DNA of 46,869 bases from Acidobacteriota bacterium (GTDB lineage: Bacteria; Acidobacteriota; UBA890). The number at the start of each line of letters is the position of its first letter. The stretch's first letter is position 1. The notes below the pieces were generated by a model. The model had not been told where the DNA came from, did not search any database, and was given only the letters and a program-made list of their open reading frames with translations. A program made the position numbers and the translations under genes. Of this stretch, positions 3,980 through 43,587 are shown piece by piece. The stretch is taken from positions 1 through 46,869 of the forward strand of contig JBHHYG010000001.1 of NCBI GenBank assembly GCA_046757445.1, given 5' to 3'.

Positions 3980-3980
3980 C

Positions 3981-12371: not shown

Positions 12372-14305
12372 TGCCCGGTCTGACCCTCGACATCAAGTTC
12401 AAGTCGCAGCTGCACCAGCTGATTATTGATGCTGTGCGCGACCGTGTACAGTTCTCGAAGCGAAAGAACGAGTCCCGCCGCAACAAGTGGATCAAGAGTG
12501 AAGAGGCAGCTCTCGCTTTCTTGCCCGAAACCGCAGTCGATGCGAAACGTAGGGGCCTCCGCGACACGGGCAAGCCCCAATACACCACCATCCAAATCCC
12601 GTACAGCTACGCCGTTCTCATGGCTTCGCACACTTACTGGACGACCGTCTTTATGTCCCGGACGCCGGTGCTTCAATTTGCAGGCCGTCATGGAGAGTCC
12701 GAGCAGCAAGTCCAGGCGATGGAGGCTCTTATCGACTACCAGGTGCAGGTGGGACGGATGCTTGTGCCGTTCTACATTTGGCTGCTCGACGGAGGGAAGT
12801 ATGGCGTCGGCGTCGTCGGCACCTACTGGGAGAAGCGCGAGTCTACAATCGCGGAGATCGTAGAGGAGGAGGAGCTTCTTCTCGGTGCGATCCCCACCGG
12901 GAGGATGAAGAAGCGCAAGGTGACTAACAGAGTCCCTGGCTATGTGGGCAACCGGCTCTACAATGTTCGCCCCTTCGACTTCCACCCCGACCCGAGAGTG
13001 CCTCTCTGGCGCTTCCAGGACGGCGAGTTCTGCGCCGTTTACAACGAACTCGGTTGGAACGAGATGCTCCGCCGACGCGACCAGGGGATGTATATTGCGG
13101 ATACCCTCAAACTTCTCAAGCCGGGCCAGCGGGGCACGGTCGGGGAGCGCGAGGCGGGCAGTGCACAACTGGAGCTTCCCGACACGGATGAGTTCTTCAC
13201 CTCTAATACGAGGGACAAGAAAGCCTCCGATATTGTCAAGATTTATGAGTGCTACATCGAACTCATCCCGAAGAATTGGAACTTGGGCCGCGGTAGTTCC
13301 CCCGAGAAGTGGGTGTTCACGGTTACTTCAGACTTCACCTTTGTTCTTGGTGCGCAGCCCCTTGGTGCCTGGCACGACTCCTTCCCATTTCACGTTATTG
13401 AGTTTGAGCCCGAAGGCTACTCGATCGTCAATCGGGGAATACCCGAAGTCCTTGATCCGATCCAGAGGACGCTGGACTGGCTGATCAACAGTCACCTGTA
13501 TAATGTGCGGAAGGCTGTGAATGATCAGTTTGTCGTCGATCCCTCGAAGATCGTGATGAAGGACTTCCAGGACCCCCTTCCCGGCGGCGCGATCCGGCTG
13601 AAGCCGAGTGCTTATGGCACCGACGTTCGGACCGTGCTGACACAGCTGAATGTGGTGGACATTACGCAGAACCACATGCGCGACCTTCAGGCCATCCTCG
13701 AGCTCGGTCAGCGCACATTGGGGGTGAGCGACCAGATCCTGGGACTTCTAGGCGCTAAGGGTGGGCGCAAGACTGCCACTGAGGTCCGCAGCTCCACCGC
13801 CTTCGGTATCAACCGTCTCAAGACCGTGGCGGAATACTTCAGTGCGATGGGTTGGACGCCAATGTCCACGATGCTGGTACAGAACTCGCAGCAGTACTTC
13901 GACACCGATCGGAAGTTCAGAGTCGTCGGCGACCTCGCCCTGGAGGCGGGGCAATCCTTCGTCAACGTCACGCCGGGCGATATTCAGGGCTTCTTCGACT
14001 TTGTGCCTGTGGATGGTACGCTGCCCATTGACCGTTTCGCACAAGCGAACTTGTGGCGTGAGCTGCTCGCCCAGATGGCGAAAACTCCCGAAGTCCTCGC
14101 GCAGTATGATCTTGGCCGTATTTTTGCCTGGGTGGCGCAGATCGCGGGGTTGAAGAACATTAATCAATTCAAGATCCAAGTACAACCCGATGCTCTACTC
14201 GCCCAACAGGCGCAGCGGGGGAATGTGGTGCCTGGGCCGGGCGCGCAGCGCGATCTGACTCGTGTGCCGGAGCCGGGCCAAATTAGCGGACTGGGGACGA
14301 CATAA
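12371..14305 (+). CDS. Portal protein
   Basis: 644 aa. Lies directly after terL and before the scaffold and capsid genes. ATG at 12371; the track start at 12368 is TTG. Confidence 0.8.
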   Translation: MPGLTLDIKFKSQLHQLIIDAVRDRVQFSKRKNESRRNKWIKSEEAALAFLPETAVDAKRRGLRDTGKPQYTTIQIPYSYAVLMASHTYWTTVFMSRTPVLQFAGRHGESEQQVQAMEALIDYQVQVGRMLVPFYIWLLDGGKYGVGVVGTYWEKRESTIAEIVEEEELLLGAIPTGRMKKRKVTNRVPGYVGNRLYNVRPFDFHPDPRVPLWRFQDGEFCAVYNELGWNEMLRRRDQGMYIADTLKLLKPGQRGTVGEREAGSAQLELPDTDEFFTSNTRDKKASDIVKIYECYIELIPKNWNLGRGSSPEKWVFTVTSDFTFVLGAQPLGAWHDSFPFHVIEFEPEGYSIVNRGIPEVLDPIQRTLDWLINSHLYNVRKAVNDQFVVDPSKIVMKDFQDPLPGGAIRLKPSAYGTDVRTVLTQLNVVDITQNHMRDLQAILELGQRTLGVSDQILGLLGAKGGRKTATEVRSSTAFGINRLKTVAEYFSAMGWTPMSTMLVQNSQQYFDTDRKFRVVGDLALEAGQSFVNVTPGDIQGFFDFVPVDGTLPIDRFAQANLWRELLAQMAKTPEVLAQYDLGRIFAWVAQIAGLKNINQFKIQVQPDALLAQQAQRGNVVPGPGAQRDLTRVPEPGQISGLGTT

Positions 14306-15587: not shown

Positions 15588-16814
15588 ATGGCAGCTGTAG
15601 CGGGACTTCGCGGAACTGGTGATTGGGGCACCGATGAACGCCCCAAGAACTTCCGCGAAATGATCCTTTTCAGGAACCCGAACGGCACTGCGCCCATCTT
15701 CGCCCTCATGGCGAGGGTGCAGAAGGAGTCGGTCGATGATCCTGAGTTCTCTTGGTGGGACGAGCCGAACGATCTCGTCCGACTTCAGGTGGCAGGGGCG
15801 CTTGGGGCGGCGGATACGGTGGTCACTGTCGACTCCGTTGACCCGACCGCGACGCTTCCCGCAAATGTCTGGGGAGTCGCCACTCACCTGAAGCCCGGTG
15901 ATCTGTTGCTGGTGGAGCCGGCGGCGGATGCTGCCACCTTCGTCAACGAGGTTATCGAAGTGGTCACGGCAATCAGCGAGACTTCATTCACCGTGAAGCG
16001 CGGTGCGTCAGGTACGACTGCCGCGGCGATTGCCGATAATTCCTTCCTGCTCTTGATCGGTTCAGCCTACTCCGAAGGCACGCCCTCGCCGAAGGCGGTG
16101 ACGAGAAATCCGATCAAGTACACGAACAAGTGTCAGATCTTCAAGACGCCCTACGAACTCACCAACACGGCGAAGGTGACTCGCACGAGAACGGGCGATC
16201 CGCTGAAGAACGACAAGAAGCGCAAGGCGTTCGACCACGCCAGAGGCGTCGAGTTGGCCATCCTCTACGGTCAGCAATCCGAAGTCACTGGGGAAAACGG
16301 TAAGCCCCTCCGCACTATGGATGGGCTGAGGAAGCAGATCCCCGGTGCGACCACGACGATCCTCGCAGCGACGAACGTGACGAACTTCCTCAATGCCGTC
16401 TTCCCGGTGTTCGACTTCGACTCGCGCGCCGGCGATGAAAGGATTGGGTTCTGCGGCAACGCGGCGCTCAATGCTCTGAACCTCATGATCCAGACTGACA
16501 CGAACACGCAAATTCAATTCGGCGGCGTGATCAATCAGTTCGGCATGAACTTCAGAGAGTTCATCATGCCGCAAGGGCGTCTCTTCATGCGGACTCACCC
16601 GCTGCTCAACCGGCATGGTCTCTATAAGAACTCGATGTTCATTCTCGACTTCAGTGTCGTCCGGTGGCGTCCATTGAGGGGGCGTGATACTTCCTTCAAG
16701 GACAACATCCAGGGCAACGACGAAGACACCCAGAAGGGGCAGTGGCTCACAGAGGCCGGTCTTGAAGTCGGCATGGGCGGATTGACCTGCGGCTACGTCG
16801 GCAACATCGTCTAG
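15588..16814 (+). CDS. Major capsid protein
   Basis: 408 aa in the canonical position, with a strong SD (AAGGAGG). The N-terminus ...GTGDWGTDERPKNFRE... resembles podoviral capsid families, from memory. Confidence 0.8.
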   Translation: MAAVAGLRGTGDWGTDERPKNFREMILFRNPNGTAPIFALMARVQKESVDDPEFSWWDEPNDLVRLQVAGALGAADTVVTVDSVDPTATLPANVWGVATHLKPGDLLLVEPAADAATFVNEVIEVVTAISETSFTVKRGASGTTAAAIADNSFLLLIGSAYSEGTPSPKAVTRNPIKYTNKCQIFKTPYELTNTAKVTRTRTGDPLKNDKKRKAFDHARGVELAILYGQQSEVTGENGKPLRTMDGLRKQIPGATTTILAATNVTNFLNAVFPVFDFDSRAGDERIGFCGNAALNALNLMIQTDTNTQIQFGGVINQFGMNFREFIMPQGRLFMRTHPLLNRHGLYKNSMFILDFSVVRWRPLRGRDTSFKDNIQGNDEDTQKGQWLTEAGLEVGMGGLTCGYVGNIV

Positions 16815-29165: not shown

Positions 29166-30340
29166 TGCCGCCCGTCCTTCCGCCCACGCCCCCCGCAGGA
29201 GTCGGCCTGGGCCAGCTTGTGCAGCCTTCTCCAGTCCAACCGGCAGCACCTCCGCAGACTGGAGAGGAGCAGCAGGCGCTGGAGTTCAAGTGGCGCGAGT
29301 TCCTTGGCCGCCCCGAGGTTCGCGCGGCGCTGCTGCAGTTCTCCGTCAATATCCTTCAGCCGAAGCCAGCGGGGCAGACTACCCTTGGGGCCATTGGGAC
29401 TTCGATTGGTGCTGCAGGCGGGGCGGCGGAGAGAGTACGCGCGCACGAGATTGAAGAAGAAGAGCGCCTGAGGCGCGCCGGGATCGAGGAGCGTCAGATC
29501 GCTACGGAGGAGGAGCGTACTGGGATCGCCGGCGAGAGAGTTGATGCCTTCCGAGAAAGGACTGAGGCGGAAGAGCGCGTCGCGCGCGCGAACCGACGAG
29601 CGGAAGCTGCGCGCCTCGCCGCGAAGCTTCGCATTAAGCTCAAGATTGCCGAGGATAGCGAGGATGCCCAGTTGCTGAACCGTATCATCCAAGAGGCCTC
29701 CGACCGGAACGAGGCCGCGGGGAAACTTGGAGAGGCGGTTCCCCCGCTGGACCCCGCAGCTGTTCTCAACGAGTTTGATAGGATCAAGCGGGGCATTGCG
29801 CTGCGGGAGGATCTCGAAGCCGGGAGGCCCCTCAATGTTCCCGACTCGGACGTGGCTGCACTACTTCAATCAACCGATCCGCGTGCTCAGTCGGCTTTGC
29901 GTCTAGTCCCGCCCGACCAGCTCGCTAGGGTGAGGGCGCAAGTCGAAGCGGCCACTCCGGGAGTGATCACTCAGGAGCCAACGCCTAAGCCAGAAGTTCC
30001 CGCTACTGGGAGGATAGAGCCTCCAGTTCCTGCGCCGAGAGCTGACCCGATAGCGCAAGCGATCGCGACTCTCCCACGGGTGACTGCCGATACCGCCCCG
30101 AACATCTCGGCGCAAGCCCGACAGCGGGCAGAGTTCATACTGCCGCCTACTGCCGAGGAGGTGAGCGACGCCTCGTGGTTGGAAATCCAGAATAATCCCA
30201 TAGCGCGGGCCGTAGCTGCCGAGAGGTATGGAGAAGAAGTCGTTGCCGCTGCGGTGGATAAAGCGCGAGGCCGTCCCGCCATTCGGGAGAAGGCTCGCGA
30301 AGCAATCGAGCGTCACAGACGCGAGACCGGCCAGCGATAA
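29162..30340 (+). CDS. Glu/Arg/Ala-rich, coiled-coil-like protein, 392 aa
   Basis: Central segment EEEERLRRAGIEERQIATEEERTGIAGERVDAFRERTEAEERVARANRRAEAARLAAKL. TAATG junction to the giant ORF. Confidence 0.6.
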   Translation: MMPPVLPPTPPAGVGLGQLVQPSPVQPAAPPQTGEEQQALEFKWREFLGRPEVRAALLQFSVNILQPKPAGQTTLGAIGTSIGAAGGAAERVRAHEIEEEERLRRAGIEERQIATEEERTGIAGERVDAFRERTEAEERVARANRRAEAARLAAKLRIKLKIAEDSEDAQLLNRIIQEASDRNEAAGKLGEAVPPLDPAAVLNEFDRIKRGIALREDLEAGRPLNVPDSDVAALLQSTDPRAQSALRLVPPDQLARVRAQVEAATPGVITQEPTPKPEVPATGRIEPPVPAPRADPIAQAIATLPRVTADTAPNISAQARQRAEFILPPTAEEVSDASWLEIQNNPIARAVAAERYGEEVVAAAVDKARGRPAIREKAREAIERHRRETGQR

Positions 30341-33300
30341 TGGTCGAGAACCCTCGTCTCTCACCGATCGGGCAGGCTCTCCTAGACCTCACGGAGGAGC
30401 CGGTCGAGCCGGTCCCGCTCCCGAGCCGGGTGCCCGGATTGTCGCCTATAGGACAGACTTTGCTGGACCTGCAGGGTCCGGCGCCCGCTCCCACCCTGGT
30501 CCCTGAACCTCCGGGACGCCCCTCGATCCTCGGGGAGTTTACGACCGGAGTAGCCTCAGGTACGCGGCGACTCGGAGCCGAGGCTCTCGCGGTCGGGGGC
30601 GTGACGACCGCGATCTTCGGTGCTGAAGAGACCTCACAGGAGTTGTTGGAACTGGCACAGGCGCGCGAGGAGGATATTCGAGCACGCTTTCCACGCACTG
30701 TGGAGTTTGCGGAAGCGTTCGATTCTCCCGGGAATATGGCTCGGTTTGTTGCCCGATTACTGGGTGAACAAACTCCCGTAATCGCCAGTATCATCCTCGG
30801 CGGCGGGATTGGCGGGCTTGTCGGCAGAGCAGTCGGTAAACGTGCTCTGAGCGCTGCGGCGGGCGACGCTATTGTGCAGAAGTTCGTGGCGCGTGGCGCG
30901 CTCGGAGGAGTTGTCGGCGCGACGACAGGGATTGAAACTGGTGCAACGGCGCTCGAACAGCAGGAAGCGATTGGCGGAGTCGAGCCGGGAGTCGCTCTCA
31001 CCGCCGGTATTGCCAAGGGCATCCTCGAAGCCGTCGTGCCGTTCGCGTTTGCCCGCAGACTCGGCATCCTCCCGGGGCAAGCTGACGACTTCATCAGCCG
31101 AATTGGTGCACAACTAAGTCGCGTTGGTGGGAGGCCTGCGCGCGTGGCGGCGGGCTTGACTGCTGGCGGTACGGTGGAAGCCGCGACGGAGACGCTGCAG
31201 GAGGCGGTTGATGTAGCAGCGCGGAGTTTCGTAGATGATAACTTCGACGCGCTCGGGCCGGGAGTTGGGGATAGGATTCTTGAGGCTGCGTTTTCGGGAG
31301 GAGTTGTCGGGCTCCTCCTGGGAGGTGTGGGCGGAGCCGTAGCGCCCTCGGCACCCTCCCGGCCAGAGGGGCCTCGCTTCGTCCCACCTCCACCGCCAGA
31401 GGGGCCGCCGGGGGTTATTATTCCCGAGGCACCTGGGCCGGAGCCTTTGGGGCTCCCGGCGCCGCCGTTGCGGCTGCCCTCTCCAGTTGAGCCGGAAGCG
31501 CCACCGATCGAACTGCCCGGGGAGGTGCAGGAGGGAGACTTCTCGACGGAAGTCTTCGTGTCTGGGGCCGTGAGCGGAACAGGGTTCAAATTCGCGGGGC
31601 AGACTACGCCTGGCGGCACGACAGTTACTTCCTTCACGCCGCCGAACCTGGCCCAGTTTGCCGTGGCGCATGTAGGAGTAGCGAACGTGAAGCTCCTGCA
31701 GGTAGATAAGAAGGGGCTCTCGAAGGATGCCGTATCGGCAGATCTGGCATCACTCCCTTCCGTTGGGGAGTTGACGAGAAAGAACCCGCGAGTTCGCCTC
31801 TTGAAGAGGGAGACAGCGATAGAGGCCTTGCGGCTCGCGAAGGAGGCCGTGACTCTCTCAGATAAGACGGGGGTAGAGCCCTTGGTGCAGGGGGAACTTC
31901 GCTTTCTTGACGCTCTCGACAAGGGCTTCCGCTTTACGCCGGAAGAAGGTGATGGCTTCGTCGTGATTGGGGAACTTCCGCAGACTCGTGAGATCGGGGT
32001 TGAGGAACTCGGTGCCGACCCGGAGTTCTTGACTTCCGGGAGATTCCTCGTGAAACCTCAGGCGGGAGTCCCCCTGGTCGGAGATAGCCAGGGCAGGCGG
32101 CTGTTTAACATCACTAGCCCTTCTGCCCCCTTTATTGGTCGGGAGGAAGAGTCGCTGTTCAAAGTGGATGTTTCTAAACTCCCAGCAGATCAGTTTACCA
32201 CCTCCAGTGCTCTCTCGTTCGCGTCGGCCTTCCCTGGCGGGATTATAAGGAAAGATCTCACACAGGCGAGGCTTGAGTCTATCGTTCGAGATAGTCCCAC
32301 CTTATCGTTCGCCAAGGGAACTAGGCGCGTAGATAAGGCGAAGATCGCGGGACTCATCGCCGACTCCGCGCAGTTAGACCCTGGAGGTACGCGTCTACAT
32401 GCGAGGGAACTCATCCGCTTGGGGCTCCGAAGGCGCCCCGGTGGAGCTTTTACTGGGGGGGTTTTTGTTGGGAAGGAACTTCCGCGCCGGGCGCTGTTGC
32501 GAGTCCCGGCGGAGCCCGTGTTCGGCGAGAGTCGTTCGATTGGCTTTCGTGCGCCGCCCGCCCAGGCGCTTGTAGAATTGACTGTTCCTACTCGTGCAAA
32601 GACCCTGAGGGGAAAGGCTTACGATGCCGCCTCTCACAGGCCCGGTACTACGGTCGTCTTGGTGAACGTCGAGACCGTTCCCACCCAGAAGGAAAAGACA
32701 CTTGCAACTGGAGTCGCCCGCTTCTACGATACGATGCTGAAGAGGTTCGGCCTCAATGACCAGAAACTTGTAGTATTCCTTGGCAGCCCCGGACCGACTT
32801 CCCACGGAAGTTTCAGCCTCAGCCCTACTTCAGGGGGGTTCTATGTGGGATTCGACGATAAGGTTAGCAACCTCATAACCTTGAACCCGAAACAGCTCGG
32901 TGACGTAGGTACAAGGCCCGGGTTTCTCTTTGACGGCGTGCCCCACGAGTTTGGGCACCTCATAAGCCACAGGGCGTTGCTGCAGGCTGACGCGAGCGTA
33001 CAGCGTCGGCTCCTGTCCGCTTACAATCGCTCCCTGATCAAAGCTACCGAAGGCACCTTCACGAACTTCGTCTTCGAGTTCTTTTCGCCGCTCAAGGCCG
33101 TCGCCACCGCAGAGTCCCTACAGGAAGAGGGTAGACTTCCTGCCCGCGAGGCGCTACGTGACGAGAGCAAGGACAAGGAGTATTGGTTCAACTTCGAGGA
33201 GTGGTTCGCCAATCACGTCGCCCGCTGGTTCCAGACCCAACGGGAGCCGATGGGGATACTGGAGAAGTTCTTCAACGGTATCGCGCAGAGACTCAAGACG

Positions 33301-36300
33301 ATGTTCAAAGCCTTCCACGTTTTCCAAGGGAGGAGCCTCGAGGACTTCGCTCCCGCAGTAGAGGTGCAGCGCTTCCTCGAGAGCCTCCAGAGCCGCGATC
33401 GTCTAAGGGTCTCTCCTGCGATTGGGTCGAATGAGGAAGCGAGCATACGCCAGAACTCCGAGTTTGTCGATGGTGCGGTGCCGCACCAAGCACACGGCGT
33501 CTACCAGGACCGATTGTTCAAGAAGCTGAAGATCCCACAGCGCGAGCGCGAAGAAATCCGAGCACTCAGTGACCGCTTCAACTGGTTCATGAAGGTAGGG
33601 TGGAACCTGCTGCAAGTGGCACGAGTCAATCCGGGATTTGCCCGCTTGCAGGAATACGCCGAAGTCATCGACCGCTGGTACACGACGAAGATGAAGTGGG
33701 TTTCACGCTCGGATCAGCGCGTGCGGGAATTGAAAGCCCTCGGCACACGGCAGGTCGAGGCACTCTCGAAGATGATCTTCGACGTGGACTCGATGAGTTA
33801 TCTCTCCGTGCAGGAGATTAAGGACGACACGTCGCGGCTACCGACGGAAGAGGAACTCGCCGCGATCGCCAAGAAGCACGGAGTCGAGAGCGAGGCCTTC
33901 GAAATCTTCCAGCGTATCCGGGAGGACTTTACGGAAGTCCTTGACGCTATTCAGACTGCGGCGGAAAAGGCGCTCGCGGAGCAGTTCCCGCCGGGCTCGG
34001 CAGAGCTGGAGGTGGAGATTGCCCAACTCAATGCGGATATGCGTCAGATGCGTCTGCGGCCTTATTTCCCGCACTCGCGCTTCGGCGACTTCTCCGTCAC
34101 CGTGAAGGAAGGAAGGGGCGAGGAGGTCAGGACCGTTTATATGCAGCAGTTCCCCTCGCGCAAGGCCGCGAGGAAGGCCGCACTTACCCTTCGTAGAGAG
34201 TTCCCCGAAGCCGCGGGCTTTAGCGTCGGGGTGGATAAGATCCCCAAGACCGTGCAGGTGTTCCGGGGGCTTCCACCGACGCTGCTGAAGGCGATGAAGG
34301 CGAAGTTGGGTCTCAGCGAGGAGCAGCGGGCTTGGTTCGACAGGTTGATTGTGGAGTTCTCGCCGGCGAAGAGCTTCCGCAAGCGGTTCCTGAGACGCAA
34401 GGATATTCCTGGCTTCAGTCTCAACGCGATGAGAGGCTATGCAGATTACTTCTTCCACGGCGCAGGATACATTGCTCGTGTGCAGTGGGGAGGTGACCTC
34501 GAGTCAATAATCTCCGATGCGCGGAAAGAGACTTCAGAACTGCGCTTGACAATGGGGAGAGAGGGGGTCGCGGACGTAAGTAAGCGTGAGGAGATCATCG
34601 AGTTCATGCGTGATCACCTCTCTCACATCATGGACCCGAAACCAGACTGGGCGCAGTTGCGCAGCGTGGCGTTTCAATGGCACTTGGGTTATGTACCGGT
34701 TTCTGCCGTGCTGAACTTGACGCAGGTGCCTATGGTGACGTGGCCTTACCTTGCAGCACGCTTCGGGGACGGTCGAGCCATCGGGGCGATAAGGCGCGCA
34801 ACCTTCGACTTCAAGAAGGCATTTGAGAAGGGGTCTCCAGACGCTTCGGACGCACTGTTGCGCGGACTTAACCTTGGGATGGAGCAGGGTTTTCTCGATG
34901 AGTCGTTTGCGAAGGAGCTTGCCGCGACGGCGAGTGGGAGCAACCTCGCTCGCCTCTTGCCGGGTTCGAAGCTCGAGAGGATGCTTATGCAATCCGCGCA
35001 CTGGAGCGCCTTCATGTTCCAGACCAGCGAGAAGTTCAATCGGAGTGTTACTTTCCGGGCGGCGTGGAACTTAGCACTTGAAAATCCCGGCGCCGAATAC
35101 CTCACCGAGCTTCGCGACACCAATACGCTGCAATTTCGAGAACTCGTTGGCCAAGGCTGGAGCGAACTCGAAGCTACCGCGTTCCTCGCCGGGAAGGACG
35201 CGGTGCAACGCACGCAGTTCCAATACTCGCAGCACGCCCGCCCGCGGTTCATGCGTGGCAGAGCCGGGACGGTGCTGACGTTCTTCATGTTCGTGCAGCA
35301 TATGCTCTGGTTCTCAACACATTCCCCAGGAAAAGGACGCTACTTGCTCATGATGTTCTTCATGGCGGGGTTGATGGGGCTGCCGGGGGCAGAGGATTTG
35401 GCGGGGATCGCCAAGTTTATGGGACGGTCGTTCTTCGGCGCGGACTTCGACGTAGAACGGGAGACAAGGGAGTTTGTGCTTGCGCTCGTGGATGGCGAGG
35501 ACTTGCCTCCCGATATGATCCTGCATGGGATCTCGCGAGTAGGCTTCGGTATTCCTGCCGTGATGGACATGGTAGGTGTGCCCTTCCCGATGTTCGACAT
35601 GAGCGCGAACATCGGCCTTGGACAGGTCGTTCCGGGGCTGGCGCAGATCGGCGACCAGGGAGACTTCGAGCAAAAATTCGCCCGTATCACGACTCGTGCG
35701 GCGGGCGCCGTGTTCGGAACTGGGATCAATGTGCTCCGGGCGCTCACGGACAATGAACTTCCTGTCGATGACTTCAAGCGCATGGAGCGGGCATTCCCGC
35801 GCTCGCTGAAGAATGTGATGAAGGCCTCGCGGTTCTTCCAGGAGGAGCGCGAACGAACTCGGACGGGCGCTACAGTGATCGAGTTCGATGCGAGCGACCC
35901 CGAGGACCTCGCGGAGATCGTAGCACAGGGCCTCGGGTTCACCCCGACGCGGCTGGGGCGCAAGTGGGATCGCCAGCGGGCTCAGGCGGAGGTGATCGCG
36001 TTCTGGCGGATAAGGAAAGGGATGCTCATGCGGCAGTACGATCATGCCTTCGCCGTTAGAAGTGGCGAGGGGGTGAAGGATGTTCTCGCAGATATGAAAC
36101 GCTTCAACAACACCACGCCGTTTCCCAGTATGAGGATACGCCGAAGCGACCTCGCGCGGAGCCGAAAGGCGCGTAATCGGGCGCGGAGACTGTTCGAGTT
36201 GGGACTGCCGACGGCGAGGCGCGAAATCCCGATTGCGCGAGATGTACAGCGGCTGTTCCCTGAGGTTGAAGATATTGAGGATGTCTCGAGGAAACGATAA
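30340..36300 (+). CDS. Giant virion-associated multidomain protein, 1986 aa, with HExxH zincin motif and hydrophobic C-terminal segments (ejection / internal virion protein candidate)
   Basis: Uninterrupted 5.96-kb ORF. HEFGH at 32944..32958. Gly/Ala-rich amphipathic N-terminal third. Hydrophobic stretches near 35260..35400. Confidence 0.85.
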   Translation: MVENPRLSPIGQALLDLTEEPVEPVPLPSRVPGLSPIGQTLLDLQGPAPAPTLVPEPPGRPSILGEFTTGVASGTRRLGAEALAVGGVTTAIFGAEETSQELLELAQAREEDIRARFPRTVEFAEAFDSPGNMARFVARLLGEQTPVIASIILGGGIGGLVGRAVGKRALSAAAGDAIVQKFVARGALGGVVGATTGIETGATALEQQEAIGGVEPGVALTAGIAKGILEAVVPFAFARRLGILPGQADDFISRIGAQLSRVGGRPARVAAGLTAGGTVEAATETLQEAVDVAARSFVDDNFDALGPGVGDRILEAAFSGGVVGLLLGGVGGAVAPSAPSRPEGPRFVPPPPPEGPPGVIIPEAPGPEPLGLPAPPLRLPSPVEPEAPPIELPGEVQEGDFSTEVFVSGAVSGTGFKFAGQTTPGGTTVTSFTPPNLAQFAVAHVGVANVKLLQVDKKGLSKDAVSADLASLPSVGELTRKNPRVRLLKRETAIEALRLAKEAVTLSDKTGVEPLVQGELRFLDALDKGFRFTPEEGDGFVVIGELPQTREIGVEELGADPEFLTSGRFLVKPQAGVPLVGDSQGRRLFNITSPSAPFIGREEESLFKVDVSKLPADQFTTSSALSFASAFPGGIIRKDLTQARLESIVRDSPTLSFAKGTRRVDKAKIAGLIADSAQLDPGGTRLHARELIRLGLRRRPGGAFTGGVFVGKELPRRALLRVPAEPVFGESRSIGFRAPPAQALVELTVPTRAKTLRGKAYDAASHRPGTTVVLVNVETVPTQKEKTLATGVARFYDTMLKRFGLNDQKLVVFLGSPGPTSHGSFSLSPTSGGFYVGFDDKVSNLITLNPKQLGDVGTRPGFLFDGVPHEFGHLISHRALLQADASVQRRLLSAYNRSLIKATEGTFTNFVFEFFSPLKAVATAESLQEEGRLPAREALRDESKDKEYWFNFEEWFANHVARWFQTQREPMGILEKFFNGIAQRLKTMFKAFHVFQGRSLEDFAPAVEVQRFLESLQSRDRLRVSPAIGSNEEASIRQNSEFVDGAVPHQAHGVYQDRLFKKLKIPQREREEIRALSDRFNWFMKVGWNLLQVARVNPGFARLQEYAEVIDRWYTTKMKWVSRSDQRVRELKALGTRQVEALSKMIFDVDSMSYLSVQEIKDDTSRLPTEEELAAIAKKHGVESEAFEIFQRIREDFTEVLDAIQTAAEKALAEQFPPGSAELEVEIAQLNADMRQMRLRPYFPHSRFGDFSVTVKEGRGEEVRTVYMQQFPSRKAARKAALTLRREFPEAAGFSVGVDKIPKTVQVFRGLPPTLLKAMKAKLGLSEEQRAWFDRLIVEFSPAKSFRKRFLRRKDIPGFSLNAMRGYADYFFHGAGYIARVQWGGDLESIISDARKETSELRLTMGREGVADVSKREEIIEFMRDHLSHIMDPKPDWAQLRSVAFQWHLGYVPVSAVLNLTQVPMVTWPYLAARFGDGRAIGAIRRATFDFKKAFEKGSPDASDALLRGLNLGMEQGFLDESFAKELAATASGSNLARLLPGSKLERMLMQSAHWSAFMFQTSEKFNRSVTFRAAWNLALENPGAEYLTELRDTNTLQFRELVGQGWSELEATAFLAGKDAVQRTQFQYSQHARPRFMRGRAGTVLTFFMFVQHMLWFSTHSPGKGRYLLMMFFMAGLMGLPGAEDLAGIAKFMGRSFFGADFDVERETREFVLALVDGEDLPPDMILHGISRVGFGIPAVMDMVGVPFPMFDMSANIGLGQVVPGLAQIGDQGDFEQKFARITTRAAGAVFGTGINVLRALTDNELPVDDFKRMERAFPRSLKNVMKASRFFQEERERTRTGATVIEFDASDPEDLAEIVAQGLGFTPTRLGRKWDRQRAQAEVIAFWRIRKGMLMRQYDHAFAVRSGEGVKDVLADMKRFNNTTPFPSMRIRRSDLARSRKARNRARRLFELGLPTARREIPIARDVQRLFPEVEDIEDVSRKR

Positions 36301-37193: not shown

Positions 37194-38399
37194 CTACTTC
37201 TCCTCCTCTTCGATCTTGACTGGATAGTACAGGATTGTACCCTCCTTCTGAACCATGCGAATATAGCCTGCTTGCGAAGCGGCTTTAATCGCCTCCGCGA
37301 ACTCCTTAGTCCCCATGATCGGCATACAGCGACGCCACAGTTCCTTGTGGTCGATCACGCCGTAGGCGCGGACGTAGGATAGCATCTCCGCGACGGAGCG
37401 CGCCATACTTCCTACGCCCATCGAGTGGAAGACTAACTGCATATCCTCCTCTAGGGCAGTCACGAGGCCGTTTGCGGACTCCATATCCGCGTCGGTGATG
37501 AAGAGTTCGTCGCGGTTCGCCGCGGCGAGGACCATCGCTACCTTGTGGATGTGGGTTTGCTTGCGGGCGATATACCCTCCGAAGCGCTCGCTGGCGAGAT
37601 GTGTCGGGCGGTTACTCCAGTGGTGCTCGTACCAGGCGATGCCCCAAGCCTTCGCTTCCGGCGTCAACTCGTACTCTCCTACCAAGTAGGCGATCTCGTT
37701 CAAGTCTTCGATGAGCTTCTTCCCTTTATCGGTGAACTCTCCCGCATCTACTATGTCTGCAGGATAGGGGACGAGGTGATGCTTCTCATCGCCATAAACG
37801 AACACGACACGGGAGGTCAATCCGCCCAAGATTAACTCCTCGGGAAAGTTCTTCCGCAGCCACGCCGGCGTTGTGCAGCCGATCACGTTGATCCAGGGGT
37901 TGACAATGAGGTCCGATCCCATAGTCTTAGTCTTCTTGCCCCATTCTTCCAGCTGCCCGTCCCAGAGAGAGACTAGGGCATCCACGAGGTCTTGGTCCTC
38001 CGGTTTGAGGAAGGTGCCGAGTTCCGAGATGGCGCAAGTGATACAAGACATCGGTAGGAACTCTTCCCCATAGGAAATGTCCCGCCGAGACTCCGCAAGG
38101 GATTGAGTTAGTGCCTGCCATGTGATCGCTTGGGGGCCGAAGTTGACACCCTCGACCTCTTCGAGTAGCTTCATGCCGACGCGGACAGAGGTGGACTTCG
38201 TAGCGATGCCCGGAGGCCCCACGAAGATAATATAGAAGTTGGGCGTCCACTGGAAATACCGCTGGTCTATCCAAACTTGGCGACGCAAGGCGCCCGCGAT
38301 CGTGGACACTCCAACCCAGAAATGGAACAGGCTGGGCGCCTCGCTGTGCTGTGTATAGTCCGAGTATTCCCGTAGCCAATTCTTAAATATCCGGGCCAA
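37194..38399 (-). CDS. P-loop NTPase, DUF3987 / primase-associated helicase-like, 401 aa
   Basis: FVGPPGIATKST (Walker A-like), AISELGTF, RVVFVYGDE. TTG start at 38399 (no in-frame ATG nearby). Family assignment is tentative. Confidence 0.6.
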   Translation of the reverse strand: MARIFKNWLREYSDYTQHSEAPSLFHFWVGVSTIAGALRRQVWIDQRYFQWTPNFYIIFVGPPGIATKSTSVRVGMKLLEEVEGVNFGPQAITWQALTQSLAESRRDISYGEEFLPMSCITCAISELGTFLKPEDQDLVDALVSLWDGQLEEWGKKTKTMGSDLIVNPWINVIGCTTPAWLRKNFPEELILGGLTSRVVFVYGDEKHHLVPYPADIVDAGEFTDKGKKLIEDLNEIAYLVGEYELTPEAKAWGIAWYEHHWSNRPTHLASERFGGYIARKQTHIHKVAMVLAAANRDELFITDADMESANGLVTALEEDMQLVFHSMGVGSMARSVAEMLSYVRAYGVIDHKELWRRCMPIMGTKEFAEAIKAASQAGYIRMVQKEGTILYYPVKIEEEEK

Positions 38400-38763
38400 T
38401 CTCTACGCCGTCGCGGAAGGAGAAGCTAGGAGGGATACAATTCAGGTATCGTATCGGCTTGTGCAGCGTCTTGGCGAACTTGATCTCGCTGCTCACGCCG
38501 AGAGAGTCCTCCCAACCGGGTAGACAGAGCACCCACAGTTCGCTCGCGGCGCGTATAAGGGCTTCATTCAGCTGCCTCCAGAAAGCGTAGTCGGTACGAA
38601 GCTCGTAGCGCCGAGCTAGATCGTGACAGTGGAGCACGGGAGAGAGCATTACGACTCCGCCTCTCGTGAACTCGCCAACGCACTCCTGCGCGATCTTGTA
38701 GCGCTCGTCCATTTTCTGCTGTGTGTTCGCGGAGTAGGGGGATGCAAGGTAGATGTAGCTCAT
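38383..38763 (-). CDS. DUF1937-like (nucleoside 2-deoxyribosyltransferase-like fold) protein
   Basis: MSYIYLASPYS...MLSPVLHCH matches the DUF1937 N-terminal signature, from memory. Confidence 0.55.
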   Translation of the reverse strand: MSYIYLASPYSANTQQKMDERYKIAQECVGEFTRGGVVMLSPVLHCHDLARRYELRTDYAFWRQLNEALIRAASELWVLCLPGWEDSLGVSSEIKFAKTLHKPIRYLNCIPPSFSFRDGVEIGPDI

Positions 38764-38775
38764 TGGGGCTCCTTT

Positions 38776-38818
38776 TCTATAGCAGGGGGTTGACAGATTG
38801 TCAACCCGCGGGTATCAC
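38776..38818. promoter_or_regulatory. Palindrome GGGTTGACagattGTCAACCC with promoter-like hexamers on both strands (minus: TTGACA-17-TATAGA)
   Basis: Lies in a 51-nt gap between polA part II and the DUF1937 gene. The core matches the element at 17201..17219. The TATAGA is only 12 nt from the ATG at 38763. Confidence 0.35.
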
Positions 38819-39600
38819 CATGTTTCAGCTTCGGCGTCCCCCCAGGACTTGCGGCTAGTTTTCAGCCCCCAAGGAATGATGAGTGGGTCGTCATAGGGAA
38901 CAACGACCTCGAGAGCATCGCGGATTTCGCCACGGGAACCGTGTCTGGAGATAGGGTATTGTAGTACCAGGCTGTCATGGACCTGGAGTAGTAGTTGCGC
39001 CCAGGAGATTTGCTCGTCCACATTAATGCCTCCCTTCGCACAAACTAACGCCACGGTAGATTGCTGGATCCACGTGAGCGCTTCGGTGAAGACATTATCA
39101 ATCCGGTCGAAGAACGTGATCCTGTAACCGAAGCGATTGATGATTGTGCGAGGAGGATTGCCCTCCACCCGGCCTTGGAGACACGCGAGGATGTAGTCGT
39201 GGCGCGCTTCGATTGCCGGGTGTAGGCCAAACCAGATTTTCTGGAAGTTCTCTGCTTCGACAACCGGAATACCGATTTGCCGAGCAAGGCCGGCAGGCCG
39301 CCCCCCATTGTGCGTTGCGTGGACACACTTCTTGCAGTTGTTGTAAAGGCCTCCTGTATAGTCAGTGGCTTTGATCGCCTCGTCACTCCAGCCTCGGACC
39401 TTCTCAGGGAACACGTCGCGGGCGTTCTTGATATGCACGTTGACTCCTGCGCGGAAGGCGGCTTTGAGATCCTCGTCCCCAGCGTCCCATGCGACGACCT
39501 GTGCCTCCGCGCCGGTAAGGTCGCACTCTGCGATGATGTAGCCGGCGTCTGGGACGAAAAAGCGGCGGATGTTGGGGAGTTGGATTGTCTGAGCAACCAT
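38815..39600 (-). CDS. polA: DNA polymerase I family, part II (palm and fingers, motifs A-C)
   Basis: ATG at 39600 in a TAATG junction. IRRFFVPDAGYIIAECDLTGAEAQVVAW (motif A region), KKCVHATHNGG (divergent motif B), LLLQVHDSLVLQ (motif C). Confidence 0.8.
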   Translation of the reverse strand: MVAQTIQLPNIRRFFVPDAGYIIAECDLTGAEAQVVAWDAGDEDLKAAFRAGVNVHIKNARDVFPEKVRGWSDEAIKATDYTGGLYNNCKKCVHATHNGGRPAGLARQIGIPVVEAENFQKIWFGLHPAIEARHDYILACLQGRVEGNPPRTIINRFGYRITFFDRIDNVFTEALTWIQQSTVALVCAKGGINVDEQISWAQLLLQVHDSLVLQYPISRHGSRGEIRDALEVVVPYDDPLIIPWGLKTSRKSWGDAEAETW

Positions 39601-39965
39601 TACCCTCGCGCCTCCCGCGCCCGACGGAGGGCCTGATATTGCTTCTCCGTGAGGAAGCCTTTGTCCTCCCACCATTCGTGTACGCTCTCGACGAAGTCGC
39701 GGAAGGAACTCGCAGGCGAGACAGAGGTGAAGAGATCTTCGAAAAGAGTGTCGATCTCTTCTGCATCGGTGTGGTGTTTGCCTCTAGGTGCTTCGTCGTC
39801 GTCAGCGGCACGCATCCTCACCTTGCCGCGCAGGAGTTCCTCCCAGCTGTTGTTCATCTCCGCGAGCATGGCGTTCGCCTTCCGCAGGGCGGACAGCGCC
39901 TCACCGTCAGACGGCGATGTGGCGAGCATCATGATCTTGATAAACTTCTCAAGATTTGGGGACAT
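39600..39965 (-). CDS. DUF2786-like protein, 121 aa, inserted between the two polA parts
   Basis: GGAGGAGG SD upstream of the ATG at 39965. KFIKIMMLATSPSDGEALSALRKANAMLAEMN fits the DUF2786 pattern. C-terminus ...FLTEKQYQALRRA. Confidence 0.6.
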   Translation of the reverse strand: MSPNLEKFIKIMMLATSPSDGEALSALRKANAMLAEMNNSWEELLRGKVRMRAADDDEAPRGKHHTDAEEIDTLFEDLFTSVSPASSFRDFVESVHEWWEDKGFLTEKQYQALRRAREARG

Positions 39966-41694
39966 CGAGTTCCTCCTCCGTTCCACTCGGAATGTTCTGC
40001 AAGTTCCCGCCTCGCTTGAAGGCGTTTTCGTCGCTGTTCCAGCGGAAGGTCCGCGTTCCCGCGATATTGAAGGAGCACCGCATCCGATCATCGGGATCGA
40101 GTGCCTTCTTGCAGAAGGTGTTGTAGAAGACGCCGACGCTACGGAACTCCTGTATCGCTTGCACGATGGGGCGAAGAATTGGTTCGGAAGCCCCTATGCG
40201 TTCGAGAGCGTCGTCGTTCACAGTCCGTCGCTTGTCCTTCGTTATCTCCTTGACGCCGAGGAGGTCGTAGAAGATGTAGCCCTGCTGTTGCGGACTGCGA
40301 TACCAGGGCACCTTCTTCGGATCAGGAGGATACACGTCGGAGGGAATGAGCTGTTCGAAGCGCGCCGCGTACTGGCCGATCGTCTCTGCAAGTTCGACGG
40401 AGACCTCAGCACGTTTGTCCCTGTCGATGTTGATGCCGCGGAGCATCATACGGAGCACCATCGGGAACTGGCGCATCTGGAACGCGGCCTGTTCCGTCAG
40501 TCCGAGTGTCTTGACGACCTTCTCGAGTTCATAGCTGATTTCCAGCGTGGCTACTACATCCTTACAGTTGTAGGTCCAGTGCTCGTCCTCGGCGCCTTTG
40601 GCCTGCCACTCGTCGTCCTCGCTCTTCCAGTAACGGTGGTAGTGACAGTAGAGGGAACTGAGGTACTCGAGTGGCTTGGGTGTACCGGGCCAGCAGACGT
40701 GGTGCAGGAGCATCGTGTCGATATAGGGTACGAGGAACAAATTCCAGTAGAGGGCGAAGTACTGGGCGTCGTAGAGGAAGTTCTGCCCGACGATCTGGAC
40801 ATTAGGGTGGGAGAGGAGCTTCCGAGCCTTCTGGATTATTGTCCATTCTTCCTCGGGGGACCAATAGCCCCTCGGATCGTTTAGACTCATAAAGGGGATG
40901 CAGATGGCAGAGAAGGCTGTAGCTCCCAGACCTAACGAGTCTATATGGCCTGCGTAAGTCTCGAGGTCCACAGATAGCCGAAGCGGCCCGGACCTCTGAG
41001 CTAACTCGAGGAAGTCGTCGAGCGCCTCCATTACTTCCCCGTATGAGGGCCGAATGGTGAACTTGTAGTATGGTGCCGCCCACTCGTTCCTAAACACCTT
41101 CGGCAGCCGGTTCTGCAGATCGTGCTTGATCGCGTAGGTCCAAGGCCACTGGCGCATCGCGGCGGCGGGGTGGAAGGTAGGCATGAAGGGGAAGCCGCCC
41201 ATGTCCTCGCGGCAGTAGAGTTGCGAACCGCGCCACGCGGTTATCCCCGTAGGGACTTTGCGCCGCTGGTCATCGCCAACGCCGAAGCAATCGTCAGTGA
41301 GCGCCCAAAGAGTGTAATTCCCAAAGCCAATGACCACCTCAGGCTTAACCGCCCCAAGTTGCGCTCGTAGAAGCTCCACACCTTCAACCACATTGGGCTT
41401 CGGATAGAGGCCACGAATACACGCCTTGCCATTTGCTCTCGCCTCCTGCGTAGGGTAGAAGAACTCCCACATATTATTGCGGGGAGGTTGTTCGCTGATC
41501 AAATTCGTGGTGAAGCAATCGTCGCGCTCTATGCCGGACTGCGATAGTAACGAATCACACAGTTCGCCACTTTGACCGACGAGGGGAAGCCTCCGGCGTC
41601 GCTCTTCGGCGCCCCAAGACTCGCCCACTATTGCGATCTTAGCGTCCTGAGGACCGCTGGTGCCGGCGAAGAGGTCAGGCATTCGCCACCCCAT
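39949..41694 (-). CDS. polA: DNA polymerase I family, part I: UDG family-4-like domain + 3'-5' exonuclease + N-terminal polymerase region
   Basis: GESWGAEE...LPLVGQSG...FHPAA (UDG4-like). DLET, QNFLYD and YNCKD (Exo I-III). Ends ...GTRTFRWNS...GGNLQNIPSGTEEELDVPKS-stop. Confidence 0.85.
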   Translation of the reverse strand: MGWRMPDLFAGTSGPQDAKIAIVGESWGAEERRRRLPLVGQSGELCDSLLSQSGIERDDCFTTNLISEQPPRNNMWEFFYPTQEARANGKACIRGLYPKPNVVEGVELLRAQLGAVKPEVVIGFGNYTLWALTDDCFGVGDDQRRKVPTGITAWRGSQLYCREDMGGFPFMPTFHPAAAMRQWPWTYAIKHDLQNRLPKVFRNEWAAPYYKFTIRPSYGEVMEALDDFLELAQRSGPLRLSVDLETYAGHIDSLGLGATAFSAICIPFMSLNDPRGYWSPEEEWTIIQKARKLLSHPNVQIVGQNFLYDAQYFALYWNLFLVPYIDTMLLHHVCWPGTPKPLEYLSSLYCHYHRYWKSEDDEWQAKGAEDEHWTYNCKDVVATLEISYELEKVVKTLGLTEQAAFQMRQFPMVLRMMLRGINIDRDKRAEVSVELAETIGQYAARFEQLIPSDVYPPDPKKVPWYRSPQQQGYIFYDLLGVKEITKDKRRTVNDDALERIGASEPILRPIVQAIQEFRSVGVFYNTFCKKALDPDDRMRCSFNIAGTRTFRWNSDENAFKRGGNLQNIPSGTEEELDVPKS

Positions 41695-42304
41695 ACTCCT
41701 TTCGGAGAACTGCGAGCCTCTTGAAGCGAAAGGGTTTTATTGCGGCGATCGCCACGATGCGAGCATACTGGGCACGATAGCCCCGTTTGTGTTCTACAAC
41801 TCTACCCCAGAGCGCTACCTTGCCGACCGCCTGCGGGGTAGCGGATAGGAGACTTGAGGAGTATGCCCAGGCTTCCTTCGCGTTCTTGAAGGCGTGGACT
41901 CCACGGTTCCCGTGTACGACGCCTTCCACAATTTCTCCTGGAAACCAGGGAAAGTCCACAAACACGCTCGTCAGCGTGGACCCCACGACTCGCCACACCC
42001 GCCAAGCGATGATCTCGCCAACTTCTATGCCGGCGTCTTCGAGGGGCTTCGGCTTGGAGAAGCTACCGGCTTGGAAGGCGCGCGCGACGGCTGCTTGGTA
42101 CTGCGCTTGAATGGCGGCGGCCGCTTGGGCTCCGTAGTCGGTGTTACGGGAGACTTGAGTGGAATGATGAAGCGCTTGCGTAATGGTTCGCCTATGTTCA
42201 TCGAGGTATCCTTTCGAGATGGGGATCATCGCACCAAGCTTGGCGTCCAAGGAGGCCTGGAACTCCTCGGGAGTTGGGAATATAGAGTCCTTGGGGATGG
42301 TCAT
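41675..42304 (-). CDS. Conserved hypothetical phage protein, 209 aa
   Basis: The C-terminal pattern WRVW...GVHAFK...GKVALWGRVVEHKRGYRAQYARI recurs in many phage hypotheticals (from memory). Confidence 0.65.
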   Translation of the reverse strand: MTIPKDSIFPTPEEFQASLDAKLGAMIPISKGYLDEHRRTITQALHHSTQVSRNTDYGAQAAAAIQAQYQAAVARAFQAGSFSKPKPLEDAGIEVGEIIAWRVWRVVGSTLTSVFVDFPWFPGEIVEGVVHGNRGVHAFKNAKEAWAYSSSLLSATPQAVGKVALWGRVVEHKRGYRAQYARIVAIAAIKPFRFKRLAVLRKEYGVANA

Positions 42305-43587
42305 TAACTCTCTCCTTCCAGTGTTATGAGCGCGTGTCGGTACGCACCCTCGTCGAGTTCGATGCCGGTGGCGACTGTGCTCGTCGCCGTCGCGGCGGGA
42401 AAGACCGTGCCGCTGCCACAGCAGGGATCAAGCACCCTATCCCCCGGTACGCAGCTATAGCGCAGTAACTTCTCGTAGAGCCCTGTGGGCTTCTGTGCAG
42501 CGACGACTCGATCCTTAAGATTAGGGACTTCAATCACGTCGGAGTGGAGGCCACTAAGTGGACGTCCGCCTTTCGAGGCAAATAGGATCAGCTCGTAGCT
42601 GCGGCGGAACCCCCTCGTGCCGATGGGGGCGTGGCCGGAAGAACCTTTGCTCCAGACGAGTGGGGTGCGGAAAGGTTCCCAACCGTGGAGCTTCGCACAC
42701 GCCTTCAGGTTCCCGAAGAACCCTATGTCGCAGAATAAATATAAGTGGGCGCGCTTCTTAGTGATTCTATTGCCTTCTTCGAGTATGCAGGTAGCAAGCT
42801 GAAGCGCGCCCGCGGGATCGTCCTTGTAGCGGTGCTCGAGCTTGGCGGCGTCTCCGAACTCGTCGGCACCCATGCCGTAAGGGGGATCGGCGATAACGCA
42901 ATCGAATTGTTCAGGCTTCATCGTGGCGAGTTCGTCGAGCATACTTCCGTGGATGAGGGTGTGGGGAGACTTCGGCCTCAACTTGCCTCGCTTCTTGAGT
43001 TCTGCCTGGAACTCCCCCTCGATCTTCCGGGAGGCGATAGCGAAGGCTTCGCGCTCGTTTCGCGCAGCAGCGATTTCGGGGTCGTCGAGGTGCTGGGCTA
43101 CGACCTTCGCTCGAGAGACCACATGGCCGTGCGTTCCGGGGCTGCCTGTGCTTCCAGCGAGTTCGATGCCGGTGTCGAGGAGGGTCTGCTTGGGGTCTTG
43201 CGCGAGGCGTAGGCTATGGAGTTCGTCGATAGCTCTCGTCCGTTCCTGCCAGGAGAGGTCTTCGCGAATGACATTTTCTTCGAGTTCGGCCTCGCGTAGC
43301 TGGAGGTCGGTTCGGTCGGTGATGAGGATGTAGGGGATTTTACCGGGCTCGATTGTAGTCCCGTCGCAGTCGAAGAGCTTATTCCCCCGCGCGAGGATGC
43401 TGACGGCCTTGAGGCGGCGGTTCCCTGCGACGAGGCACAAGCCCGTGGGCGTTCGGCTGCAGACGATTGGGTGTAGGAGTCCCTTGTCCGCGATGCTTGT
43501 GGCAAGGCGCTGCGTCGCAGCGAGGTCAAAGTGCTTGCGCTGGCGATCTTCGGGGACTGTTATGTCGCCTAGCCGGGCTACGCGCAT
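42304..43587 (-). CDS. ParB-like nuclease domain fused to a DNA methyltransferase (DPPY ... FxGxG order)
   Basis: LLHPIVCSR...LVAGNRRLKA (ParB N-domain), VIADPPYGMG (catalytic motif IV), VLDPCCGSGTV (AdoMet motif I). Confidence 0.85.
   Translation of the reverse strand: MRVARLGDITVPEDRQRKHFDLAATQRLATSIADKGLLHPIVCSRTPTGLCLVAGNRRLKAVSILARGNKLFDCDGTTIEPGKIPYILITDRTDLQLREAELEENVIREDLSWQERTRAIDELHSLRLAQDPKQTLLDTGIELAGSTGSPGTHGHVVSRAKVVAQHLDDPEIAAARNEREAFAIASRKIEGEFQAELKKRGKLRPKSPHTLIHGSMLDELATMKPEQFDCVIADPPYGMGADEFGDAAKLEHRYKDDPAGALQLATCILEEGNRITKKRAHLYLFCDIGFFGNLKACAKLHGWEPFRTPLVWSKGSSGHAPIGTRGFRRSYELILFASKGGRPLSGLHSDVIEVPNLKDRVVAAQKPTGLYEKLLRYSCVPGDRVLDPCCGSGTVFPAATATSTVATGIELDEGAYRHALITLEGES

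Follow-up and report, generated by a model that had tools for sequence, protein, structure and literature searches.

A probable naturally split family-A DNA polymerase of a tailed phage, with a split site that recurs as a slot for accessory genes

The stretch analysed here (the window, 46,869 bp) is a single contig, JBHHYG010000001.1, within an Acidobacteriota metagenome-assembled genome (MAG) deposit, and two genes on its minus strand, named Part I and Part II, together encode a family-A DNA polymerase (PolA) fused to a uracil-DNA glycosylase (UDG)-like domain. Between them lies a 366-nt open reading frame (ORF), called the insert below. We consider it very probable that the two genes constitute a naturally split polymerase of a tailed phage and that the split site is a recurrent slot for accessory genes. 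Part I would run from the UDG-like domain through the proofreading exonuclease and the thumb to the first palm segment, reaching as far as the NLQNIP motif, while Part II would provide motif A, the fingers with motif B, and motif C. The two chains are proposed to form an obligate two-subunit enzyme, associating non-covalently into one palm with one active site, which would be built from both of them because Part I gives the first palm segment and Part II gives motifs A and C.

Re-reading of the sequence showed that the coordinates, overlaps, Shine–Dalgarno (SD) sequence and TAATG junction described in an initial annotation of this DNA were correct to the base (Table 1). Part I stops 12 residues past NLQNIP, its C terminus reading ...RGGNLQNIPSGTEEELDVPKS-stop, i.e. 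...NLQNIPSGTEEELDVPKS-stop, and Part II, which reads MVAQTIQLPNIRRFF... at its start and contains QVHDS, begins 7 aa before LPNIR. The cut lies in the palm, in the short surface loop between NLQNIP and the strand leading into motif A, ~20 residues ahead of the catalytic Asp of that motif. Searching Pfam placed the break at position 138/139 of the DNA_pol_A profile: Part I matched positions 33-138 (28.9 bits, which alone is under the cut-off of 34.3) and Part II matched positions 139-343 (E 1e-14, 54.7 bits, over the cut-off), covering the profile without overlap or gap. Similarly, phrog_17 was matched by Part I at positions 475-989 (E 4.8e-44) and by Part II at positions 996-1233 (E 4e-27). 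Two independent family profiles thus place the halves directly next to each other (138/139 in Pfam, 989/996 in PHROG), and PHROG itself holds half-families at the break, with phrog_12241 ending there and phrog_2573 and phrog_10285 starting there. These matches agree with the earlier description of Part I as a UDG-like, exonuclease and polymerase protein and of Part II as the remainder of the polymerase.

Alignment with contiguous enzymes gave the same picture. Part I aligned to Bst Pol I until ~3 residues before KIRQAF, and Part II aligned from KIRQAF onward, with its motif A CDLTGAEAQ opposite Bst ADYSQIELR, its motif C QVHDS opposite QVHDE, and the motif B lysine (K of CKKCVH) opposite Bst K706; the catalytic carboxylates of motifs A (D..E) and C (HD) are both present in Part II. 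Among phage proteins, the uninterrupted homologues of Microcystis phage Mel-JY34 and Bacteriophage sp. ctMlz233 (810 and 779 aa, GenBank) aligned across the break with a linker of 5-17 residues. When Part I and Part II were fused in silico and modelled by AlphaFold2 with an alignment of 55 homologues, the joined model had a mean pLDDT of 92.3 and a pTM of 0.90, and the sole internal segment with pLDDT <50 was residues 574-584, the junction. Foldseek matched this model to Klenow, Bst and Klentaq at E 1e-26, with TM 0.75-0.81 over 640-675 columns. The joined parts are thus predicted to fit one canonical Pol I fold, with the new termini located in a disordered loop.

We surveyed 85 related loci, mostly from IMG/VR (numbered with the prefix L), and 60 of them were split at the loop used in the window, while 23 were contiguous. 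The gap between the two polymerase genes in split loci ranged from -34 nt (overlapping) to 2827 nt. In L006 the Part I stop is directly followed by the Part II ATG (GAA TAA ATG), with no insert, and the spacer is 3 nt in L144 and 102 nt, non-coding, in L146. Cluster counts were taken from a 5.8-billion-protein collection, using the 120 closest clusters for each part. All 120 Part II clusters were stand-alone (181-307 aa, 45-71% identity); on the Part I side, 86 were stand-alone, ending ~4-8 residues past NLQNIP, and 27 were contiguous, about 800-900 aa long. The Part II proteins start with MVA in 88 of 118 cases, the MVAxT start is conserved across >80 clusters, and in 91/118 the start lies exactly eight residues ahead of the LPNIR Pro. 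Such a conserved start at a fixed spacing to LPNIR implies selection on a genuine Part II N terminus. The closest relatives of the window carry different cargo or none, and the split therefore predates the present insert. Accordingly, the two-subunit split enzyme offered in the initial annotation is strongly supported by the shared break, by the insert-free loci and by the stand-alone Part II clusters, whereas its picture of a polymerase interrupted by an inserted gene is misleading, the split being older than and independent of the insert.

The loop at the break varies among contiguous members as well. Within the best 150 representatives of 50% identity clusters, their linkers ranged from 5 to about 60 residues, and because of this range we regard the loop as intrinsically tolerant of change. 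A rough neighbour-joining (NJ) tree of 73 taxa, without support values, required at least 10 switches between the split and contiguous states by Fitch parsimony, which suggests repeated fission or fusion at this loop. Minimal forms of the fission, an in-frame stop followed by ATG, were seen at 3205-3220 of L006 (GNE-TAA-ATG-VAQ) and at about 5986-6000 of L114 and L115 (GDF-TAA-ATG-KLPNV), and these would be possible substrates for low-level readthrough. In four contiguous members (P0171, P0173, P0203 and P0115), an insertion of ~55-60 residues sits exactly at the split loop, e.g. ...GGKNKIALYCREHGPTSVGKLCEIFGRTPEEMMGDLDRAEDEGAVKLEY..., and looks like a small folded domain, possibly of winged-helix-like type.

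The gaps of 43 split loci were inventoried for ORFs. A dUTPase/dCTP-deaminase-like family occurred in 13 gaps, and the ribonucleotide reductase (RNR) large subunit gene in 4, in multi-gene cargo reaching 2.8 kb. HNH endonuclease genes were found in the gaps of L136, L093/L097/L098, L084 and L132, and single gaps contained DUF6378, DUF3310, RNase T-like, SNase, Mom-like or methyltransferase genes; many of the gap ORFs are orphans, and some gaps hold nothing. The RNR genes between the halves (L075 3085-4806, L076 3259-5007, L080 3789-5549 and L086 4029-5750) are complete, encoding 573-586 aa with a Pfam Ribonuc_red_lgC match at E 3e-107. We propose that fission created an intergenic slot which then became a recurrent landing place for accessory genes, and that in the window this slot would hold a small two-module helical protein non-essential to the split enzyme.

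The junctions in the window point to coupled expression. The insert ORF begins 17 nt inside the 3' end of Part I, with GGAGGAGG 6 nt upstream of its ATG. This SD sequence (39972..39979) is made by the Gly and Glu codons of the Part I tail, in which Gly-Thr-Glu-Glu-Glu is coded GGA ACG GAG GAG GAA, a strong SD sequence. The tail of Part I would thus also act as a ribosome-binding site for the gene that follows, and the overlap of the cargo stop with the Part II start probably couples Part II translation to the cargo gene, judged from the DNA itself; GGGAGG is present 10 nt upstream of the Part II ATG. The three genes, tightly packed and pointing the same way, probably share a transcript and have their translation coupled, and a scan for promoters and terminators yielded no more hits than expected by chance, with no signal between Part I, the insert and Part II. 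SD-like tetramers follow NLQNIP in 62 of 63 split relatives and in 17 of 21 contiguous ones, from which we infer that the loop is predisposed to initiate translation of any gene placed behind it; this predisposition may be part of the reason that the site accepts fissions and insertions. The 12-residue tail of the window's Part I is itself an outlier, in that 85 of 86 stand-alone relatives end 4-8 residues past NLQNIP, typically KGTEDE-stop. Its extra residues LDVPKS (39952..39969, minus) are encoded within the start of the insert gene, in a frame other than that gene's own, a pattern that looks as if the usual Part I stop was lost upon arrival of the present cargo.

The insert consists of two modules, a weakly DUF2786-like one at the N terminus and, at the C terminus, one marked by the signature SFRDF..SVHEWWEDKGFLTEKQY; its AlphaFold2 model has a pLDDT of 87. 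At least 66 full-length homologues of 112-155 aa share these helical modules, which are both conserved and are separated by a linker that varies, with a conserved N terminus FxKFIKLMM and the C-module consensus SFRDF..SVHEWWExKGFLTEKQY. The label DUF2786-like given in the initial annotation is weakly borne out: 22 of 36 family members matched PF10979 at E<=1 (best 2.7e-4) and the insert fold had weak BFVD matches to DUF2786-named proteins (E 6e-3 to 1.3), whereas the window protein itself had no PF10979 match in Pfam at E<=0.1. The fold gave no significant match in the PDB, and the C-terminal module had no match in Pfam or the PDB. HNH, GIY-YIG, LAGLIDADG or other nuclease domains were found neither in the insert and its family by Pfam and PHROG nor in the insert by fold search. 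Its GC content and GC3 equal those of the flanking genes, and hence carry no compositional sign of recent acquisition. We also considered whether the insert start MSPNLEKFI is a frame-shifted duplicate of LPNIRRFF and rejected this, as FxKFIKLMM is conserved family-wide and the DNA match is only ~11/24.

The distribution of the insert family differs from that of the split. None of the 46 IMG/VR loci with insert relatives has a Part II match within 5 kb, only L056 has a Part I-like match upstream, a weak one (24% identity, E 3e-6), and in L008 and L011 the gene stands among unrelated early genes. Within the clade of the window, the full protein or a version with the C-module only follows Part I in L005, L010, L069, L139/L140 and L141, and the family is absent from L004, L006, L061, L138 and L143-L146. 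Since close relatives lack it, the insert is dispensable cargo that the split enzyme does not need. The gap of L005 also holds a 91-aa Cys/His-rich ORF (3795-4070; ..CRYPLWGDD..YCG..SYCALHHAKCY..), which may resemble the C terminus of GcrA-like regulators.

Phage DNA polymerase genes can harbour introns and homing-endonuclease genes, as was also raised for OM43 phages (PMC10580990). The insert could be a self-splicing intron that carries an ORF, of group I, as offered in the initial annotation, or of group II, and its splicing would restore a contiguous mRNA; the common frame of Parts I and II is consistent with such an origin. However, we found no Rfam match at E<=10 on both strands of 38500..42000, and the insert ORF covers the entire 348-nt spacer and overlaps both flanks, so that no non-coding sequence is left from which a ribozyme core (P1-P9) could form. 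The spacer RNA fold is unremarkable (z = -1.74; 6/100 shuffles fold as well), relatives have spacers of 0-3 nt or multi-gene blocks in the same place, the Part II start is conserved, and the insert family lives mostly outside polymerases. Splicing is thus very unlikely, and the group I intron is set aside. A split intein was rejected too, as there is no room for a ~100-aa N-intein or a ~35-aa C-intein and both parts align directly to contiguous homologues. It is hardly conceivable that the arrangement is a pseudogene, a frameshift, a MAG assembly error or a gap crossed by recoding (readthrough or ribosome bypass), even though the source is a MAG contig and the two parts share a frame. The same architecture appears in independent JGI, ENA, Logan and NCBI assemblies and in a cultured Vibrio phage, and both halves are conserved with their catalytic motifs kept. 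The shared frame with its in-frame stop at 39907..39909, noted in the initial annotation, was confirmed as the first of four further stops in the spacer; with five stops counted across the spacer in this frame, and a conserved ORF reading the spacer in another, recoding is rejected.

The insert might instead be, or derive from, a mobile selfish element whose invasion split the gene, much as free-standing homing endonucleases did with nrdA of phage Aeh1 (precedents in PMC2988022 and PMC3045599). The HNH genes in exactly this slot in several relatives and the recurrent switches at the loop fit such events, but no nuclease domain was found in the insert by Pfam, PHROG or fold search, the insert and its flanks have the same composition, the split is older than the insert, and the switch tree has no support values. 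We consider this origin unlikely for the insert, while a homing-endonuclease origin of the fission or fissions is plausible at the level of the family. Alternatively, the 121-aa protein might work as an accessory (third) subunit of the split polymerase or help to assemble it, its gene staying in the slot so that all three are expressed together. The insert gene is probably translationally coupled on both sides and the same C-module (..HxWWxEKGFLTxxQ..) directly follows Part I in several loci of the clade, but other close relatives lack the family, its relatives at the 46 IMG/VR loci have no Part II within 5 kb, and in L008 and L011 the gene has unrelated neighbours, which makes this role improbable. 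A broader proposal would combine a loop that is a recurrent fission point, with its at least 10 switches, an interior of the polymerase gene that is a protected slot for coupled expression, and a 'WWxEKGFLT' protein of this clade that is a polymerase-associated factor; we regard the combination as doubtful. If true, a slot inside an essential polymerase gene would express dUTPase, RNR, HNH and small orphan proteins.

Some points weigh against the split-polymerase reading as a whole. The 85-locus survey was seeded with split-type sequences and is hence biased towards them. The joined AlphaFold2 model is an artificial fusion with contiguous homologues aligned, and it speaks for compatibility with a single fold, not for assembly of two chains. 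Assembly of the two chains and DNA synthesis by them are inferred from fold compatibility and precedents. Because motif B is unusual and motif C is HDS, not HDE, full activity should not be assumed from the sequence.

The divergent motif B (KKCVHATHNGG) pointed out in the initial annotation proved to be real. At the positions equivalent to Klenow R754, F762 (B3) and Y766, Part II has Tyr, His and Asn, respectively, and the E883 equivalent is also non-canonical. Each of the 28 subfamily members aligned has His at B3, and this holds for relatives of the contiguous type as well (KAFVHGTNYGG), whereas Phe, Tyr and Leu are the only residues given for this position in the 2023 PolA classification (PMC10201439). 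From sequence, the B3 His could affect sugar or analogue discrimination. The described members of other UDG-fused PolA groups (N4-like, SPO1-like and SP15-like) are single polypeptides with Phe, Tyr or Leu at B3, unlike the subfamily of the window with its invariant His. As a separate observation, some homologues carry ~280 extra residues near Part II query position 90, just before motif B, both stand-alone proteins (P0074, P0151, P0152, P0169 and P0186; 516-557 aa) and longer ones (P0130, P0167, P0168 and P0197; about 1,084-1,143 aa), so that the match to Part II falls into two stretches; this may point to inteins or some other large insertion at a second position in the polymerase.

The UDG-like domain of Part I aligned with the family-4 UDGs 1ui0, 1vk2 and 1l9g in the PDB (E 1.6e-9 to 4.3e-9). 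Its motif A is GESWG compared with the usual GE(A/G)PG, i.e. Pro is replaced by Trp, and PFVG is changed to PLVG, but motif B still has its histidine (FHPAAAMR). The N-terminal Fe-S Cys ligands of family-4 UDGs are not apparent in it. The domain may be an active glycosylase or, alternatively, a uracil/DNA sensor. As read from the translation, Exo I (VDLET) lies just upstream of the Pfam exonuclease match, and Exo II (NFLYD) and Exo III (YNCKD) lie inside it.

Split phage polymerases are already known. In Aeromonas phage 25, a relative of T4, the PolB gene 43 is divided into 43A and 43B; the two products purify together and show activity, and NrdA of Aeh1 likewise functions as a split enzyme (PMC2988022). 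In addition, a termination–reinitiation split of Pfu polymerase is active (PMC3061061). In phages 25 and 44RR (43A/43B) and in Aeh1 (nrdA), as in the window, an essential replication enzyme is cut in its catalytic region into adjacent genes, and what fills the gap differs between phages, being in some a short untranslated spacer and in others a free-standing gene (PMC2988022; PMC3045599). However, those enzymes are a family-B polymerase and an RNR, not a family-A polymerase, and their intervening genes are homing endonucleases (seg, mobE), while the cargo of the window has no nuclease domain and that of its relatives is mostly nucleotide-metabolism genes or orphans. Within PolAs, fission between the exonuclease and polymerase parts was reported in 2023 for T7-like cyanophages (S-SBP1-like) as the first split in this family, likewise at gene level, with new termini that are solvent-exposed in AlphaFold models and halves predicted to reassemble into the canonical fold (Czernecki et al. 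2023; PMC10201439). That cut lies between domains and holds no cargo, whereas the cut in the window lies inside the palm and has become a gene-gathering slot. The cultured Pseudomonas phage LUZ24 (Bruynoghevirus) also has a split PolA domain, with endonuclease VII between 'DNA polymerase part II' and 'DNA polymerase', but its C-terminal piece starts from Pfam position 295, before motif C, it belongs to another PolA subfamily, and it has no UDG domain.

A cultured parallel, Vibrio phage vB_VspS_VS-ABTNL-3 (MF497422; PVS_29 / PVS_28 / PVS_27), has the same UDG-exonuclease-PolA subfamily, synteny and break (...NLQNLPKGDG-stop, with ...QLPNIKKLF near the start of Part II), and a single ORF separates its halves. 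Its proteins are only 29-34% identical to those of the window, the gap ORF (184 aa, phrog_8380) is unrelated to the insert, and the halves are annotated as separate proteins in GenBank. The architecture is already visible in this GenBank entry and in the PHROG half-families, and our full-text literature search found no paper on the Vibrio phage split. The search otherwise returned descriptive mentions of split PolAs in OM43 phages, cyanophage MAGs and the T7-like exo|pol case, and no description of an intra-palm cut in a UDG-PolA, of its high frequency or of a cargo-slot role; likewise, the searchable published PolA classifications contain no intra-palm split, the 2023 survey giving only the exo|pol one (PMC10201439).

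On the reading of a naturally split polymerase, a family-A enzyme would tolerate a break ~20 residues from its catalytic aspartate, and many environmental phages would keep that break, a cut shared by hundreds of phages related to this one. The loop would then offer enzyme engineering a naturally tolerant position at which Pol I-type enzymes could be divided or given extra domains, and phage biology a gene-insertion hotspot documented within an essential gene. It would also explain mislabelled halves such as 'uracil-DNA glycosylase family protein', the NCBI deposit name of Part I, and 'DNA polymerase', and PolA surveys by gene length or single ORF would miss or truncate this clade.

Table 1. 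Coordinates in the window of the split polymerase locus, its neighbours and the phage structural genes
Feature	Coordinates	Strand	Content or basis
Part I, proposed large subunit, 581 aa	39949..41694	minus	UDG-like, 3'-5' exonuclease, thumb, first palm segment
Putative family-4 UDG-like domain, Part I aa 14-183	41146..41655	minus	Pfam PF03167, E 3e-14
3'-5' exonuclease core, Part I aa 276-394	40513..40869	minus	Pfam PF01612 DNA_pol_A_exo1, E 1.5e-10
Part I C-terminal tail SGTEEELDVPKS	39952..39987	minus	Variable loop between NLQNIP and motif A
Insert, cargo gene in the split site, 121 aa	39600..39965	minus	Two helical modules
TAATG stop/start overlap, insert TAA and Part II ATG	39598..39602	minus	Sequence
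Part II, proposed small subunit, 261 aa	38815..39600	minus	LPNIR segment, motifs A, B, C
Motif B, non-canonical, Part II aa 87-101 (LYNNCKKCVHATHNG)	39298..39342	minus	Bst/Klenow alignment
ParB-N / N6-N4 DNA methyltransferase fusion, upstream neighbour	42304..43587	minus	phrog_67 and phrog_3264
Nucleoside 2-deoxyribosyltransferase-like gene, downstream	38383..38763	minus	phrog_355 / phrog_14296 set
DUF3987-type primase/helicase gene, downstream	37194..38399	minus	phrog_355 / phrog_14296 set
Terminase	10627..12132		
Portal	12368..14305		
Major head protein	15588..16814		

The terminase, portal, head and tail protein genes indicate that the window is a tailed-phage genome (or prophage-sized contig) binned with the bacterium. 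No tRNA was found by ARAGORN in the whole window. The polymerase genes belong to a replication module on the minus strand, in the order ParB-methyltransferase, a 209-aa ORF, Part I, insert, Part II, deoxyribosyltransferase-like gene and DUF3987 primase/helicase, and the synteny of this module was found again in every relative examined. The ParB-methyltransferase fusion lies upstream of the polymerase in L001-L003, L010, L139 and L143-L146, where it anchors the module, and the downstream order of the deoxyribosyltransferase-like and primase/helicase genes is kept in L001, L010, L139 and L143-L146. Outside the module, a 1,986-aa ORF occupies 30340..36300 on the plus strand, and its C-terminal ~780 residues match large phage proteins, including the DarB-like antirestriction family (phrog_10089, E 2.6e-34). 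Giant-gene equivalents of this ORF flank the replication module in relatives, e.g. L010, L141 and L144.

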